Of a stretch of DNA of 64,000 bases, positions 44,118-52,212 are shown in pieces (within the stretch, counting starts at the first letter, position 1; each line of letters begins with the position of its first letter). Source of the DNA: Sulfurospirillaceae bacterium (GTDB lineage Bacteria > Campylobacterota > Campylobacteria > Campylobacterales > Sulfurospirillaceae). The position numbers were made by a program, and so were the translations under genes. The DNA is taken from NCBI GenBank assembly GCA_033723415.1, contig JAWVXD010000005.1, positions 32,001-96,000 on the forward strand. Direction: 5' to 3'. The notes below the pieces were generated by a model. It was not told the origin of the DNA. It made no database searches and saw only the letters and a list, made by a program, of their open reading frames with translations.

Positions 44118-44354
44118 CTAATCAGGCGGTCCATATCCTTTTTCTTTTGCCTTTCTTTCTTTTATATTCTTTTTTCTTTCTTCCAACATAACAGCATCCT
44201 GCAAAGATTCCTCATCATCATATAAAGCTCCATCCAGAAATTTATTTTGATCATCAAATTGACCTGTTCTTAAACCCCAAATAAGTGCCCAAAGTCCAAA
44301 AGCTCCAAGCGTTATAGATGCCCCAAGCATCATGGCTATAACCCAACTGTTCAT
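44118..44354 (-). CDS. ccoS: cbb3-type oxidase assembly protein CcoS/FixS
   Basis: TM helix then WGLRTGQFDD; downstream of ccoI. Confidence 0.9.
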   Translation of the reverse strand: MNSWVIAMMLGASITLGAFGLWALIWGLRTGQFDDQNKFLDGALYDDEESLQDAVMLEERKKNIKERKAKEKGYGPPD

Positions 44355-44355
44355 A

Positions 44356-44436
44356 TTAACTGTCTCCTTTAACTTGGGACAGGTTCCAAGTTAAATTCCT
44401 CTCACTAAAGCTTCGCCCTTGGCGAGAATTTTTCAT
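44356..44436 (-). CDS. Repeat-encoded mini-ORF, 26 aa (MKNSRQGRSFSERNLTWNLSQVKGDS)
   Basis: Strong SD GGAGGAG upstream; stop 1 nt before ccoS ATG. Confidence 0.55.
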   Translation of the reverse strand: MKNSRQGRSFSERNLTWNLSQVKGDS

Positions 44437-44447
44437 TAACTGTCTCC
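44356..44447 (-). repeat. 80-bp structured intergenic repeat, copy C, plus duplicated SD/stop/start end (GGAGACAGTTAA)
   Basis: TGTCTCC recurs at 44361 and 44441 (80-bp period); 61/81 identical to copy at 50769-50849. Confidence 0.9.
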
Positions 44448-44468
44448 TCCAACATTTAGTATGATCAT
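44436..44468 (-). CDS. Linker mini-ORF, 10 aa (MIILNVGGDS)
   Basis: TAATG overlap with ccoI stop and TAATG overlap with the next mini-ORF. Confidence 0.35.
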   Translation of the reverse strand: MIILNVGGDS

Positions 44469-46885
44469 TATTTTCTTTTTGGTGTCTTAATCATATTGAT
44501 TCTCATAGAATTTCCTACAACTATCAATGAACTAAGTGACATTGATAAAGCTGCAAACAGCGGAATCACATATCCTGCCATAGCAAGTGGTATCGTTATA
44601 GCATTATACAAAAATGATAACAATAAATTTTCTTTAACGATACGAAATGTCCTCTTTGAGATCAAGAATGAGTAATACAGTGACTCAAATGAATTATTTA
44701 TAAGTACGACATCACTTACATTTAGAGCTATATCAGCCCCACTACCCATAGTTATAGCTATCTCACTTTTTGAAAGTGCCAAAGCATCATTGATCCCATC
44801 TCCTACCATGACTACTTTTTTACCGTTCTTTCTAGCCTCTTCTATTATATTAGCTTTCTCTTGAGGCAGTAAAGAAGCATAAAATTTTTCTATTCCTACT
44901 CTATTGCATATTTTTTTTGCCACTTCCTTATTGTCTCCTGTCAGCATAATCACTTCTACACCTAAGTGTTTGATATTTTCTATGCTCCAAGCAGCATCTT
45001 CTCTTGGTATATCTTCTAATGCAAAAACTGCCACTACTTCATTATTGATTGCAAAGTAGTATTGACTAAAATCTTCAAAACTGCTATTACATTTTATACC
45101 ATTTTCAGATAATAAACTCATGCTGCCACCATAAAGTGTAGCTCCTTCATAAGTGGCTTTTATGCCTTTTGCTTCGATATTTTTGATGTTTTGCAAGTCT
45201 TTTATTTTAAATTTTTCTTCCTCAAAATATTCTGCTATCGCTTTACTTATAGGATGAGTAGAATTTTTACTTAGAGAATATAAAAGCGATCTGTCAAAAT
45301 CTTTTAAATATACTTTATCCACAATTTTGGGTTTCCCGGAAGTTATAGTACCGGTCTTATCCAACATCAATACGTCACATTTCGCCATAGTTTCTAGAAA
45401 TGAAGCTTCTTTAAATAGGATACCTGATTTAGCAGCCATCCCAAGACCAACAAGCGTAGAAACTGGAGTTGCCAATCCAAGAGCGCAAGGACATGCTATG
45501 ACTATAACAGAAATTGCAACTATTAAAGAGCGCTCAAAAGGTTCTCCGCCAAAATACCAAAATAGTAAAGTTCCAATAGAGAGTAATAAAATAATAGTAG
45601 AGAAGTAACCAGATACGATATTTGCTAGCTTTTCAATTTGTGGTTTCTTATTCATAGAATCTTCTAATAACGAAGTTATTTTACTCAATACCGAAGAATT
45701 GACATCACATATCGCACGATATCTAAAAACAGTATCTAGCGCGATATATCCACTTAGTATCTTATCTCCTGTCTTCAAAAAAACAGGTGTAGATTCTCCT
45801 GTCAAGCTTGAAGTATCAAATGAAGATTCACCGTCAATAATAACGCCGTCAATAACAATTTTTTCACCGGCCTTTACTTCTAATATATCTCCTGTTTTAA
45901 CTTCTTCTACACCTAACAATATCTTTTCATCGTTTTTTATGACCAATACTTCCGTAGGGACTGAGCTGTTAAAACTGTCCAACCTGTCTACAGCCTTTTT
46001 CTTTGATAAAACTTCTAAATATTTTCCTGCAAATACAAAAGTTATGATCATAGTCACAGAATCAAAATAAACTTCTCCTTTTTGAGAAAACATCGCATAT
46101 AAAGAGTATATATAAGCTGAAGTTGCACCTGTTGCAACTAGAATATCCATATTTACATATTTGTTCTTTATCCCGTAATATGCACCTTTAAAATACACCG
46201 AACCCGTGTAAAAAAGAGTTGGTGTTGCTAGTACGAATTCTGCAAAATTCAAGATGTTTTTTATTTCGAGTTTCATGCCTGTAAAATAACCTGCATATTG
46301 AGCTATTGCGATCCACATGATATTCATAGTAGTGAAAACGCCGACCAATAATCTAGCGTAATAATCACGTCTAGTACTATTTGCCTGAATCTCCTGCATG
46401 CTAGGATCATAAGGGTATGCATTGTAGCCGATGTTCCTGATAGTAAGTATGATTTCTGAGAGTTTTATAGTGTCCGGATCCCAAACGATTTTTGCTTTAT
46501 TGTTTGTTTGATTAATGCTTGCTTCTACTATACCATCTTTTTGATGCAATACTTTTTCGTTAAGCCAGACACAAGCGGAGCAGTGAATTCCTTCTATAAT
46601 GAGATAAATCTCATAAAATCCGTCTTTATTTTTTATATATTTTTTGTTAAAACCTTCTAGATCAAATTTTTCAACTTCACCAAGATCTTCTTTTGGTGGT
46701 TCAAGTTCAGTATTTCCGACTCTTTTATAAAAATCATCCAAACCTTCACTTTTCAGAAGATGGAAAACTCCTTGACAGCCTTTGCAGCAAAAATATTTTG
46801 TTGAATCTTCAAAACTGCTGTCTTTAATCAATACCTTTTCGTCAAATTCAAGATGACAATGGTCACAGCGTCTTTTTTGCATCAA
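44468..46885 (-). CDS. ccoI: P1B-type Cu ATPase CcoI/FixI
   Basis: CDHC..FCCKGC N-terminus, GIHCSAC HMA, TGES, CPCALG, DKTGT, GDGIND; adjacent ccoS. Confidence 0.9.
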   Translation of the reverse strand: MMQKRRCDHCHLEFDEKVLIKDSSFEDSTKYFCCKGCQGVFHLLKSEGLDDFYKRVGNTELEPPKEDLGEVEKFDLEGFNKKYIKNKDGFYEIYLIIEGIHCSACVWLNEKVLHQKDGIVEASINQTNNKAKIVWDPDTIKLSEIILTIRNIGYNAYPYDPSMQEIQANSTRRDYYARLLVGVFTTMNIMWIAIAQYAGYFTGMKLEIKNILNFAEFVLATPTLFYTGSVYFKGAYYGIKNKYVNMDILVATGATSAYIYSLYAMFSQKGEVYFDSVTMIITFVFAGKYLEVLSKKKAVDRLDSFNSSVPTEVLVIKNDEKILLGVEEVKTGDILEVKAGEKIVIDGVIIDGESSFDTSSLTGESTPVFLKTGDKILSGYIALDTVFRYRAICDVNSSVLSKITSLLEDSMNKKPQIEKLANIVSGYFSTIILLLSIGTLLFWYFGGEPFERSLIVAISVIVIACPCALGLATPVSTLVGLGMAAKSGILFKEASFLETMAKCDVLMLDKTGTITSGKPKIVDKVYLKDFDRSLLYSLSKNSTHPISKAIAEYFEEEKFKIKDLQNIKNIEAKGIKATYEGATLYGGSMSLLSENGIKCNSSFEDFSQYYFAINNEVVAVFALEDIPREDAAWSIENIKHLGVEVIMLTGDNKEVAKKICNRVGIEKFYASLLPQEKANIIEEARKNGKKVVMVGDGINDALALSKSEIAITMGSGADIALNVSDVVLINNSFESLYYSFLISKRTFRIVKENLLLSFLYNAITIPLAMAGYVIPLFAALSMSLSSLIVVGNSMRINMIKTPKRK

Positions 46886-50202: not shown

Positions 50203-50769
50203 TCATACTTTTACTCTTAAATCCATAGCTTTTGACAAAGATAAGATATCTACATTTTCAAGATGAACGCCCGTAGGAACACCTTGTGCAATTTTCGTAA
50301 AAGATAAAGACATATCTTTAAGATTATCTTCTATATGCATAATCACAACATCATTCGAAAGTGATGGTGTCAATGCAAATATAATTTCTTTAACTCCATC
50401 TTTAGCTATAGTTTTTAGATGATCTATACTATCCGGTTCTACATTTTCTAATACAAAATATTTTCCGTCATATAAGTTATACTCTTCTAATACCAATATA
50501 TCTTTTGCATTTTCTACTATGCAAATCTTTGTATTGTCACGTTTTTCATCCAGACATATCTCACATATCTCGTTTTCACTTAATGCCCCGCAATTTTGAC
50601 ATTTTTTGATTGATTTGACAGCAATTTCTATTGAATTTGCAAGCTTCATAGCCAAGAAAGTATCATTTAATACTAAGTGATACGCATATCTCATAGCCGA
50701 CTTTTTGCCAACAGTCGGTATAGATTGAAATGCTTCTACTAGATTATTGAATTTTTCTAATTGTTTCAT
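50203..50769 (-). CDS. recR: Recombination mediator RecR
   Basis: PTVGKKSA HhH, CQNC..CEIC Zn finger, Toprim, IAQGVPTG. Confidence 0.95.
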   Translation of the reverse strand: MKQLEKFNNLVEAFQSIPTVGKKSAMRYAYHLVLNDTFLAMKLANSIEIAVKSIKKCQNCGALSENEICEICLDEKRDNTKICIVENAKDILVLEEYNLYDGKYFVLENVEPDSIDHLKTIAKDGVKEIIFALTPSLSNDVVIMHIEDNLKDMSLSFTKIAQGVPTGVHLENVDILSLSKAMDLRVKV

Positions 50770-50849
50770 TAACTGTCTCCTTTAGTTTGGAACTCGTCCC
50801 GAACTAAATTCCTCGCACTAAAGCTAGCGCTTTGCGCAGAGTGTTTCAT
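50769..50849 (-). CDS. Repeat-encoded mini-ORF, 26 aa (MKHSAQSASFSARNLVRDEFQTKGDS)
   Basis: AAAGGAG SD upstream; TAATG overlap with recR start. Confidence 0.55.
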   Translation of the reverse strand: MKHSAQSASFSARNLVRDEFQTKGDS

Positions 50850-50904
50850 TGTCTGTCTCCTTTAACTTGGAACTCGTCCAAAGCTAAATTTCTCGTACTA
50901 AAGC
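50769..50904 (-). repeat. Tandem copies (B complete, A 3' part) of the 80-bp structured repeat
   Basis: CTGTCTCCTTTA recurs at 50773 and 50853 (80-bp period); matches 44356-44436. Confidence 0.9.
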
Positions 50905-50983
50905 ACAAAACAGAAGTTTCTGTATCGCTATTTTCTATAATTTGAAAAAGCGCAGGAGTTGAATTTTTGTCTATTTTTTTCAT
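50846..50983 (-). CDS. Mini-ORF, 45 aa, ending in the repeat (MKKIDKNSTPALFQIIENSDTETSVLCFSTRNLALDEFQVKGDRQ)
   Basis: ATGA overlap with kinase stop and ATGA overlap with the next mini-ORF. Confidence 0.45.
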   Translation of the reverse strand: MKKIDKNSTPALFQIIENSDTETSVLCFSTRNLALDEFQVKGDRQ

Positions 50984-52212
50984 GTAAGTATCTTAAATTG
51001 GTGTATTTTTATTTCTTCAGAGTAACTGTACTCTAGAGAAAAATCATGTAATTCTACTATATTTTTAACAATATAAAGACCCAAACCTAAGCCTTTGTCC
51101 ATATTACCGGAAACAAATGGCTTGAAGTATTCTTCTATGGCTAGAGAAAGTTTTTCTCCTCTATTTTCAAAAATTATGGCATTTTTTTCGCTTCTTACCT
51201 TTACTTGGTGATCAGGACTGTGCTTTATAGCATTATCCATCAAATTTTTCATAGCCAAAGCAAGTAGTTCAAAATCTGCCCACAGTATCATTTCATCCTG
51301 AACATCTACTATAACATGTTCATCTCTTTTTTCATTTTCCAACATCAACAGATCAATTCCATGTTCTAGAATATAAACAAGATTATATCTTTGAAAATTT
51401 GGAGTGTAGCTTTTGGACACAAGCTGTTCAATTTTGGCAAATTCGCTTATAAGAATGTCTAGTCTCTCAAATATCTTGATCAATCTGTTTTTAGATTTTT
51501 CATCTTCCAGCATTTCGGAAACGATTCTGCCTTTACCTATGGGTGTCTTTAACTCATGCATAATAGTTCTCAAAAAAAGTTGCCTTGAAGCCATCAGGGC
51601 AGATATTTTCTTCACAGCTCGATCAAATTCATTTGCAACCTCAGCTATCTCGTCATCTTGATCACTTTTACAATCAACACTCATATTTCCACTTGCAAAC
51701 TCCCGTATTTTCAAACTTAGTTCTTTAAGCGGTGAGATACTTCGCAAGATTGAAGCATACATCAATATAAAGATAATCAAGGCAATCGCAAAACCAATCC
51801 AAAGCTGCTTATCACTACTTTTTATATTACTAGTGCTTTCTAGCAATATATTAGTCATGATATTTTCGATAAAAAGATAGTATTTGTCGTTGTATTCTAT
51901 AGATGTAAATCTATTTAGATTTATGGATTTTCTGTAAATTATAGTTCCTTGATCTAAAACTGCTTGCTTTAGATTGGGATTATCAACCTTTTTGAGATCA
52001 AAAGTATGAAAATACTCTTCTATATTTCGTGGAGTATAGTTATTGCGATAGAGAGTAAAAAGATAATTTATAGATTGAAATTGTCTTTGTTTCATACGTT
52101 CAGTGTTGATTTCTTCTTGATATTTCAGCAAAAGGATAAAAAACATACCAAGGAGAACAAGAGAAAAAACAAAAATGATGGTAATTTTGGTGCTTAGTGA
52201 TTGTTCTTTCAT
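50980..52212 (-). CDS. racS: Sensor histidine kinase (RacS/ArsS-like)
   Basis: 2 TM, HAMP, IMHELKTPI H-box, NLMDNAIK, GLGLGLYIV; dnaJ/RR/HK/recR arrangement as for C. jejuni racRS. Confidence 0.75.
   Translation of the reverse strand: MKEQSLSTKITIIFVFSLVLLGMFFILLLKYQEEINTERMKQRQFQSINYLFTLYRNNYTPRNIEEYFHTFDLKKVDNPNLKQAVLDQGTIIYRKSINLNRFTSIEYNDKYYLFIENIMTNILLESTSNIKSSDKQLWIGFAIALIIFILMYASILRSISPLKELSLKIREFASGNMSVDCKSDQDDEIAEVANEFDRAVKKISALMASRQLFLRTIMHELKTPIGKGRIVSEMLEDEKSKNRLIKIFERLDILISEFAKIEQLVSKSYTPNFQRYNLVYILEHGIDLLMLENEKRDEHVIVDVQDEMILWADFELLALAMKNLMDNAIKHSPDHQVKVRSEKNAIIFENRGEKLSLAIEEYFKPFVSGNMDKGLGLGLYIVKNIVELHDFSLEYSYSEEIKIHQFKILT

Follow-up and report, generated by a model that had tools for sequence, protein, structure and literature searches.

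The stretch analyzed here (the window) comprised 64,000 nucleotides (nt) of a Sulfurospirillaceae bacterium (GenBank assembly GCA_033723415.1, contig JAWVXD010000005.1, positions 32,001 to 96,000 of the forward strand), and it carried, at the junctions ccoI–ccoS and kinase–recR, three units of a short element that contained two hairpins, a near-invariant linker, and a Shine–Dalgarno (SD) sequence of its own. As far as can be told, this repeat represented a previously unnamed, sense-oriented, structured family of Campylobacterales. The ccoI–ccoS junction displayed the following features (ORF, open reading frame):

44468..46885, minus strand: upstream gene for a copper-type P1B ATPase, ccoI/fixI by context (ORF list plus NCBIfam TIGR01511/TIGR01525)
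44436..44468, minus strand: 10-codon ORF MIILNVGGDS, whose 3' half repeats the SD–spacer end of the unit (sequence)
44356..44436, minus strand: 26-codon mini-ORF MKNSRQGRSFSERNLTWNLSQVKGDS, spanning unit A (ORF list; no Pfam/NCBIfam match)
44118..44354, minus strand: ccoS, downstream gene (TIGR00847)
44435..44447, minus strand: 13-nt direct repeat GGAGACAGTTAAT (SD plus spacer), left copy (sequence)
44355..44367, minus strand: 13-nt direct repeat GGAGACAGTTAAT, right copy, in which GGAG 44367-44364 is the SD of ccoS (sequence)
44349..44439, minus strand: element unit A, G000:C5:76349-76439 (covariance model, 94.6 bits, E 4.6e-17)
44413..44425, minus strand: hairpin 1 of unit A, with a 5-bp stem and a 3-nt loop, the stem varying among copies with compensation
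44393..44411, minus strand: near-invariant linker core GCTTTAGTGAGAGGAATTT of unit A (alignments of copies)
44368..44395, minus strand: hairpin 2 of unit A, with a 10-bp stem, its 3' arm running into AAAGGAG

The genes and small ORFs formed a chain: TAA 44470-44468 of the 805-amino-acid P1B ATPase ORF shared one base with ATG 44468-44466 of the 10-codon ORF (TAATG), TAA 44438-44436 of the latter shared one base with ATG 44436-44434 of the 26-codon ORF, and TAA 44358-44356 of the 26-codon ORF ended one base before ccoS ATG 44354-44352. The name ccoI was given to the ATPase gene from context only. A preliminary description of this DNA had reported this chain, the duplication of the ORF end at an 80-nt period, and two hairpins, and all of them were recovered at the same places, with GGAGACAGTTAAT present at 44447-44435 and 44367-44355, 80 nt apart; the exact 80-mer was expected 0 times in shuffles. 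The same description had proposed a placement at operon junctions that does not break translation, and ccoS indeed kept an SD and an unbroken relay of coupled ORFs. The 10-codon ORF probably combines the old junction with what is left of the 3' end of an upstream unit since lost. As a separate observation, the antisense reading of hairpin 1 plus AATTTTTCAT in the ccoS copy (window 44412-44426, plus strand) scored terminator-like, and the recR copies did not.

A further copy had been noticed before recR; two units proved to be arranged there in tandem:

50203..50769, minus strand: recR (TIGR00615)
50762..50852, minus strand: element unit B, directly 5' of recR (covariance model)
50842..50926, minus strand: element unit C, with a different 5' module (type 2), tandem upstream of B (covariance model)
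50980..52212, minus strand: ArsS-family sensor kinase gene, upstream of the recR units (NF038389)

Unit B carried a 26-codon ORF (50769..50849) with its TAA overlapping the recR ATG, and unit C lay inside a 45-codon ORF (50846..50983) with its ATG overlapping the kinase stop.

The element displayed a constant order of parts: a short pyrimidine-rich 5' end, hairpin 1, linker, hairpin 2, AAAGGAG, 4 to 9 bases, and the start codon. Among aligned copies, hairpin 1 had a 4- to 6-bp stem with a different sequence in each copy, the linker was a near-invariant single-stranded segment of 19 nt (core GCTTTAGTGAGAGGAATTT in the window), and hairpin 2 had a freely covarying stem of 10 to 15 bp. Two 5' modules were joined to an identical linker plus hairpin 2: (i) type 1, in which TTCT precedes a stem that has an AAAG-like loop; and (ii) type 2, with an ACAGAAG...CTTCGT hairpin, in L079, L097, L110, L120, L140, L161, L163, L171, L174, L188, L190, and window 50842-50926. 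A further sub-type, found at G000:C5:215058-215189, G000:C3:327662-327754, and L068, had an extra module of about 25 to 42 nt within the linker, between AGCTTT and GTGAGAGG; this module started with CTCAC, a stretch able to pair with the GTGAG that comes next.

The source genome (G000) was a 2.43-Mb assembly of 17 contigs with 34.5% G+C. Iterated nhmmer (E≤1e-3) found 35 non-overlapping matches in the whole assembly, with E-values down to 1e-17, and a covariance model built from 27 full-length copies gave 41 matches in the genome (E≤0.01). The suggestion, made from the window alone, that the element was dispersed was borne out by these 41 matches and by more in relatives, with a uniform orientation apart from one antisense copy. 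Within the family to which the window belongs, every one of the 24 genomes sampled had between 2 and 89 matches; at E≤1e-6, matches were present in 32 of the 151 genomes and 9 of the 26 families of an even sample across the order, in which 28 candidates per genome were scored. The carriers per family were 7/9 (f1), 1/1 (f2), 1/10 (f4), 4/10 (f6), 2/10 (f8), 7/10 (f11), 4/10 (f16), 4/9 (f20), and 1/4 (f24), and the spread was patchy, with 1 to 7 of 10 genomes carrying the element within several families.

Cross-species copies were collected by scanning a genome collection for the exact linker core, giving at least 120 stretches with 128 matches among those listed (the scope of all cross-species counts below); this sample was chosen by exact linker match, and linker invariance in it was therefore by construction. 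The full anatomy was present in 127 of these 128 matches, and the records were labeled Sulfurimonas, Sulfurovum, Sulfurospirillum, Arcobacter, or unclassified Campylobacterales. A Calothrix core match (L142) did not have the anatomy and was rejected as a family member. The element had no blastn match in plasmids and phages, and two exact core matches on IMG/VR contigs were rejected as phage copies because they lay within coding sequence and had no hairpins. The preliminary description had recognized no named family, in agreement with Rfam 15, which gave 0 matches at gathering score over the window and no element match at E≤1 in eight copy-holding loci. A literature search on Campylobacterota repeats of such type and on the motif string returned nothing relevant, the sole string match being a Francisella paper.

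Both hairpins were supported by covariation. In the 27 copies aligned by MAFFT, 86.0% of hairpin cells paired, compared to 66.8% in shuffles (0 of 500 shuffles reached the observed value), double-change cells numbered 77 compared to 28.2, and slid controls were at most 57% paired. In 107 cross-species copies, whose alignment was fitted to the covariance model and so leaned towards it, 93.3% compared to 64.5% of cells paired, and double-change cells numbered 389 compared to 120.6. G·T pairs exceeded A·C pairs in both the unfitted (26:11) and fitted (74:21) alignments, as would be expected of a structure read as RNA on the sense strand; the hairpins probably act at the RNA level. The apex of hairpin 2 was kept GCTTTGC-like in about 70% to 90% of the 107 copies. 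Single-sequence folds contained hairpin 2 in every case, and GGAG was unpaired, directly 3' of hairpin 2, in five of six minimum-energy folds and six of six centroid folds. With the SD mostly unpaired in these folds, the earlier idea of an SD-proximal stem opened by ribosomes on the mini-ORF gained no support.

Several other contacts and signals were considered for the unit. The minimum-energy folds of type 1 preferred a longer 5' helix (TTCTC...AAAG/CTTT...GAGAG), which was rejected because its 5' strand varied, the linker was constant, and type 2 was without it. A kissing contact between the two loops was likewise rejected, since the hairpin-2 apex was unchanged in copies with other hairpin-1 loops and no covariation was found. 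On their sense strand, the three window units matched no E. coli-type sigma-70 promoter consensus. Tethering of the linker to 16S rRNA was rejected, its duplex energy being matched or beaten by 130 of 300 shuffles; the 11-nt 5' part of the linker, one of four strings tried, surpassed most shuffles (12 of 300 did as well).

The element was placed at start codons. Among the 110 usable cross-species copies (17 were left out because they were too near the locus end or held N), in 89 a start codon lay 51 to 59 nt downstream of the first linker base, and its frame stayed open as far as the locus end; the mirror control on the other strand gave 10 of 110. The remaining copies had a start slightly further (10), another unit (6), the 5' end of 16S rRNA (1), or none of these (4); of the last four, three preceded a 10-codon ORF, and one preceded a short gene closing before the locus end. 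L086, L091, and L135 (Sulfurovum/Epsilonproteobacteria labels) each showed a unit, then a 10-codon ORF MRAMYENGTI, and then a second SD and start.

In the source genome, an upstream ORF on the same strand accompanied 37 of the 41 copies, its end lying anywhere from 9 nt within the unit to 207 nt ahead of it, and 34 of 41 had a same-strand downstream ORF of at least 60 codons, most downstream ORFs beginning 6 to 8 nt before the 3' end of the model. The downstream proteins could be named in 30 of 33 scanned cases and had no common function: the genes were argB, rbfA, clpX, ccoS, arsC-like, dnaE, ureC, recR, prpB, parB, nuoC, infA, lysS, lutB, hflK-like, gpmI, nadC, yedF, atpA, rplL, an aminotransferase gene, rplK, argG, argF, rpoZ, a sugar-phosphate nucleotidyltransferase gene, truD, apbC, secY, and mreB. 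A riboswitch or gene-specific leader was rejected because these 30 named genes came from unrelated pathways. Three arginine-biosynthesis genes were among the 33 scanned, namely argB (C1:111580), argG (C1:227269), and argF (C5:215058), with argF also being the site of the copy retained in the low-copy genus g3 described below, which could be a coincidence or a hint to the founder locus.

The copy before 16S rRNA (L186) was informative about the origin of the SD. Its AAAGGAG–spacer ended three bases before the first position of the Rfam bacterial small subunit rRNA model, and since a 16S rRNA gene has no use for an SD, the SD must have traveled with the element. The flank of L186 was the same as that of L116, which came from a Sulfurospirillum arcachonense record, and the 16S leader of the sister genome held no such unit.

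Filled and empty sites were compared at three junctions, 30 loci each, and at all three the unit was present in some genomes and absent from others; for ccoI–ccoS, a look for empty sites in relatives had been called for in the preliminary description. (i) At ccoI–ccoS (same-family loci), nhmmer found the unit in four loci (own genome, G006, G009, and G073, the last with three tandem units); in 24 loci ccoI and ccoS were closely packed (stop and start overlapping or at most about 10 nt apart), and the SD lay within ccoI; and two loci (G013 and G051) had spacers of about 100 nt with no called match, which may be unit remnants. At the filled site of G006 (L049), AAAGGAGAAATTAATATGA flanked the unit on both sides. 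(ii) At kinase–recR, three loci were filled (own genome with two units, G010, and G006 with two units) and 27 were not; the closest relative, G013, had ACATGAAACAATTA (L192) there, with stop and start overlapping. The left junction in the own genome was ACATGAAA with the old ATGAAA kept, and from this retention it follows that the start of the first mini-ORF was the former start codon of recR. A rare linker variant was common to the three filled recR sites, which argues for a single origin. (iii) At the junction of argF with its upstream gene, nhmmer called six filled loci from three genera, and inspection by eye added three: G009 with a type-2 unit, G067 with a cut flank, and G064 with a degenerate unit. 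A further linker variant was common to the argF copies of two genera. Two loci at this junction (L318 and L322, from G066 and G072) held an unrelated insert of about 75 nt with a long GC-rich hairpin (GCGGGAC...GTCCCC).

In G013, the closest complete genome, 17 units were distributed over 11 loci, the largest array holding four; seven of these loci were common with the own genome, and four (rpe, rplJ, flgE, and rpmA) were not. At rpmA and flgE of G013, a native SD persisted downstream of the decayed SD-like end of the unit. The flgE locus (L272; G013:C1:2374904-2374995 plus upstream) had two units in the 5' untranslated region (UTR), downstream of a GGAAC-N-TTGCT motif, which we take to be a sigma-54-like promoter motif. 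At rpe, where the sister genome had a unit, the own genome held, within the same flanks, a different insert of about 170 nt closed by a 23-nt inverted repeat (G000:C3:145408-145597, L277:159-348, outside the window). The insert was practically a single-copy sequence, its one other match being weak and 62 nt long, and it matched nothing in Rfam at E≤0.1. Comparison of the left flank with the unit's own right end in 88 solo copies gave a mean of 12.65 matching positions of 22, compared to 12.24 for non-own ends (p 0.20). Flanking direct repeats were rejected as a general target duplication on the basis of this overall test; where present, they were SD–start duplications of 13 to 19 nt.

The mini-ORF ended near the gene start at some copies and does not appear to be a defining trait of the family. 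In-frame ATGs were found in 12 of 29 anchored copies of the own genome, and in 10 of these the ATG preceded the core by exactly 25 nt; the usual stop of the frame lay no more than 15 nt ahead of the gene start or 1 nt past it, and in two copies the frame was shared with the gene, with a fusion at yedF. Across species, an in-frame ATG without an intervening stop was present in 23 of 117 copies, compared to 28 of 117 in the control frame, and the frame was closed before the SD in 33 of 117. Variation in the linker by codon position was 11/24/40, or 11/24/26 without the first stem base, which was not a coding pattern, and the mini-ORF peptides had no Pfam/NCBIfam match. The relay of mini-ORFs described earlier was accordingly real at ccoS and recR and did not extend to the family as a whole; it appears to be a by-product, with an old start on the left and a stop within the SD–spacer on the right, and not a selected feature.

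Constraint on the element differed among loci. In genus g3, which had one or two copies per genome, the argF copy was 89% to 99% identical among four species, compared to 92% to 97% at codon positions 1 plus 2 of argF, 49% to 69% at position 3, and 73% to 90% in the last 90 nt of the upstream gene. Gene conversion was unlikely there because there were so few copies, and such identity points to purifying selection at the locus or to a very short recent transfer. Between the own genome and G013, the element exceeded third-position identity at prpB (0.83 compared to 0.54), a 163-amino-acid gene (0.78 compared to 0.58), and a 112-amino-acid gene (0.66 compared to 0.58), and the prpB pair displayed a compensatory change in hairpin 2.

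Taken on sequence evidence, the unit may be a portable, structured translation-initiation leader, a reading that we favor tentatively and would put at slightly short of an even chance. The unit would enter or duplicate at the SD–start region of a gene, bringing its own SD and spacer, and the former SD and/or start codon of the gene would be left on the 5' side of the unit. A surviving old start would open a mini-ORF through the unit, with a stop codon overlapping or adjoining the real start (ATGA, TAATG, or TAA-N-ATG). In the mRNA, hairpin 2 would lock up the sequence just 5', leaving the SD and start single-stranded whatever lies upstream, and the downstream gene would stay translated despite its original stop/start overlap having been pushed apart; where the old start survives, ribosomes terminating on the mini-ORF could re-initiate too. 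The invariant linker and hairpin-2 apex would most likely form a recognition surface for a putative partner, be it a regulator, a nuclease, or the copying machinery. Consistent with an exposed SD, the opening cost from SD to start had a median of 3.20 kcal/mol in 18 element-borne starts, compared to 4.35 in 150 other AAGGAG starts (Mann–Whitney p 0.0055), the effect being modest and coming from 18 related, non-independent copies under a rough gene model.

A number of observations count against a leader function. The minimum-energy fold of the ccoS copy (unit A) paired part of the SD with the loop of hairpin 2, and an insulating hairpin does not explain 19 near-invariant linker bases across families. 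A degenerate antisense copy lay between tRNA-Cys and tRNA-Ser (G000:C2:313653-313741; L278:254-342, minus strand) and was kept at the equivalent place in the sister genome. Long flanking repeats were confined to a minority: a threshold of 18 identities in 22 positions was reached by 6 of 88 solo copies, compared to 12 of 1306 non-own pairs. At three of the six loci shared with G013, the element was no better conserved than synonymous sites or fell below them, element and third-position identities being 0.69/0.67 (rplL), 0.49/0.49 (a 110-amino-acid gene), and 0.52/0.69 (rpoZ). Many copies look decayed or replaced, which would fit neutral passengers, and a patchy distribution with 2 to 89 copies per genome would be a feature of selfish DNA.

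The last points lead to a purely selfish, MIRU-like mobile repeat, which is possible and, on balance, unlikely: the hairpins and linker would serve the unit's own copying, being recognized as DNA or RNA by a putative enzyme with no host benefit, and the SD and overlapping stop would only make insertions harmless. Variable occupancy of the three junctions, tandem arrays with as many as four units, identical neighboring units, the patchy occurrence in 9 of 26 families, the decayed copies where a native SD further downstream serves, and the antisense copy in the tRNA spacer would all agree with it, and the covariation could come from selection on the element lineage alone. However, the argF copy in the low-copy genus evolved like nonsynonymous sites (89% to 99% compared to 49% to 69% at third positions), G·T exceeded A·C on the sense strand, plasmids and phages yielded no copies, the unit lacked terminal inverted repeats, and no short target duplication recurred consistently. 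A candidate enzyme did not emerge either: Y1 transposase genes occurred in 32 of 41 relatives, including element-free families, and were missing in two carriers, G018 and G021. The more specific proposal of a MITE/REP-like mobile unit (MITE, miniature inverted-repeat transposable element) fell on the same grounds: as a MITE, the unit had differing ends (ATTCT-hairpin and hairpin-AAAGGAG) and no fixed target-site duplication, and as a REP/REPIN with RAYT, it had a uniform orientation and was not tracked by Y1_Tnp.

Three further explanations assign the conserved parts to a partner or product. A shared binding platform, in which the linker and hairpin-2 apex bind a trans-acting protein or small RNA and the element-bearing genes form a post-transcriptional regulon, would account for a 19-nt single-stranded stretch kept in at least four named genera and nine families between stems that vary freely, and for the conserved GCTTTGC-like apex; moreover, two GGA-containing purine tracts flank the hairpin-2 base, the genome encodes CsrA, and a regulon was proposed for Neisseria REP2-associated genes (PMC3184786). 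It looks quite unlikely, as the downstream genes lacked functional coherence, linker–16S rRNA complementarity was no better than in shuffles, copy sets differed strongly between sister species, which would be odd for a regulon, and the linker invariance in the cross-species sample followed from how that sample was chosen. An intercistronic processing/stability module, in which an endonuclease would cut the linker, hairpin 1 would serve as 3' protector of the upstream and hairpin 2 as 5' protector of the downstream mRNA, and the levels of neighboring cistrons would be uncoupled, agrees with the geometry of two stable hairpins around an unpaired linker between co-directional genes, with the copy before the 5' end of 16S rRNA, where processing occurs, and with the precedent of segmental mRNA stability in ERIC, REP, and SMAG (PMC3184786, in part); yet nuclease sites rarely need 19 conserved bases, 5' UTR copies right after a promoter (flgE in the sister genome) need no punctuation, and this explanation seems improbable. 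Highly improbable is a functional 26-residue peptide, or a leader peptide regulating the downstream gene: an ATG opens the frame at this locus and in the 12 anchored copies above with a stop near the gene start, and the linker always reads SFSERN-like in that frame, but the ATG was no commoner than in the control frame across species, the frame was often closed before the SD, compensatory stem changes rewrite the peptide, and neither a coding-like variation nor a domain match was found. As a family trait, the peptide is largely refuted already.

The invariant linker and hairpin-2 apex might dock a dedicated putative factor, either a ribosome-binding site (RBS)-homing copying machinery or a global RNA-binding regulator, a proposal that goes further and is rather unlikely. 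If true, a copying factor would be a new RBS-homing mode of mobility, and a regulator would unite the 30 to 90 genes served by the element in each genome into a post-transcriptional regulon that can be rewired rapidly. Separately, the genome also had one CsrA gene and one reverse transcriptase gene.

The family adds a well-resolved, covariation-supported member to the start-codon repeats, which are mainly known from mycobacteria and Neisseria, and its hosts are environmental Campylobacterales. It is a candidate for a new Rfam family, it accounts for many of the 'extra' spacers between cistrons and of the spurious small ORFs in carrier genomes, and its conserved argF copy in a low-copy genus is a clean test case for function. 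It also raises two questions, namely what reads the 19 invariant bases and how the unit finds ribosome-binding sites.

Among known systems, MIRUs are, according to PMC3184786, 40 to 100 bp long with 40 to 50 copies, lie in polycistronic mRNAs, and have empty and filled sites; they are said to insert at start codons, with the unit ORF coupled to the gene at a −4 spacing (PMC12548453 and PMC3184786). As described there, the present family resembles them in its short units, tens of copies, location in operons, gene orientation, frequent tandem arrangement, and empty/filled sites between relatives. The MIRU-like behavior found here comprised (i) a short dispersed unit, (ii) a start-codon site between co-directional genes, (iii) empty and filled sites, and (iv) arrays of two to four. 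An internal ORF overlapping or adjoining the flanking stop and start was seen at ccoS and recR and in 12 of 29 anchored copies of the own genome, and family-wide in 23 of 117 copies, no more than in the control. The present family differs in belonging to another phylum and to an AT-rich (not GC-rich) host, the two being set apart by description only; its internal ORF is dispensable (about 20% of copies), its unit has its own strong SD, a 19-nt invariant linker, and extensively covarying hairpins, and the tetranucleotide direct repeats of MIRUs were not seen in it.

Neisseria REP2 and the Borrelia inverted repeats have, according to PMC3184786, no terminal inverted repeats, two stem-loops, a promoter, and an RBS plus ATG, and lie directly upstream of genes. 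The present element resembles REP2 (and Borrelia IR-A/IR-B) in having no terminal inverted repeats, two RNA-level stem-loops, and an RBS plus ATG at its 3' end. It likewise lies directly upstream of ORFs, REP2 having about 25 copies according to the same source, and REP2 frames can fuse with neighboring ORFs, as at yedF here. REP2, as described there, is 120 to 150 bp long with a promoter and marks co-regulated genes, whereas the present unit is about 80 nt and mostly intercistronic, serves mutually unrelated genes, and gave no E. coli-type sigma-70 promoter match on the sense strand in the three window copies.

ERIC, Correia/NEMIS, REP/BIME, and SMAG are also short intergenic repeats that are transcribed, form hairpins, and can affect how an mRNA is processed or how stable it is (PMC3184786, in part). 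Unlike the present family, they occur in both orientations, have terminal inverted repeats or single palindromes, and are not known to supply an SD or to be tied to start codons.

Cassettes of synthetic bicistronic design (BCD) are mentioned in PMC12548453. The present element is a natural counterpart of this design, which is matched at ccoS and recR, where a short leader cistron holds the SD of the gene and its stop overlaps or adjoins the gene's start. BCD depends on translation of the leader cistron and is not known to have conserved hairpins or a linker, whereas most natural copies are without a leader cistron. The kind of element is already described, in MIRU and REP2, to whose sequence families the present repeat, as far as can be told, does not belong; new are the sequence family, its phylum, and its invariant linker.

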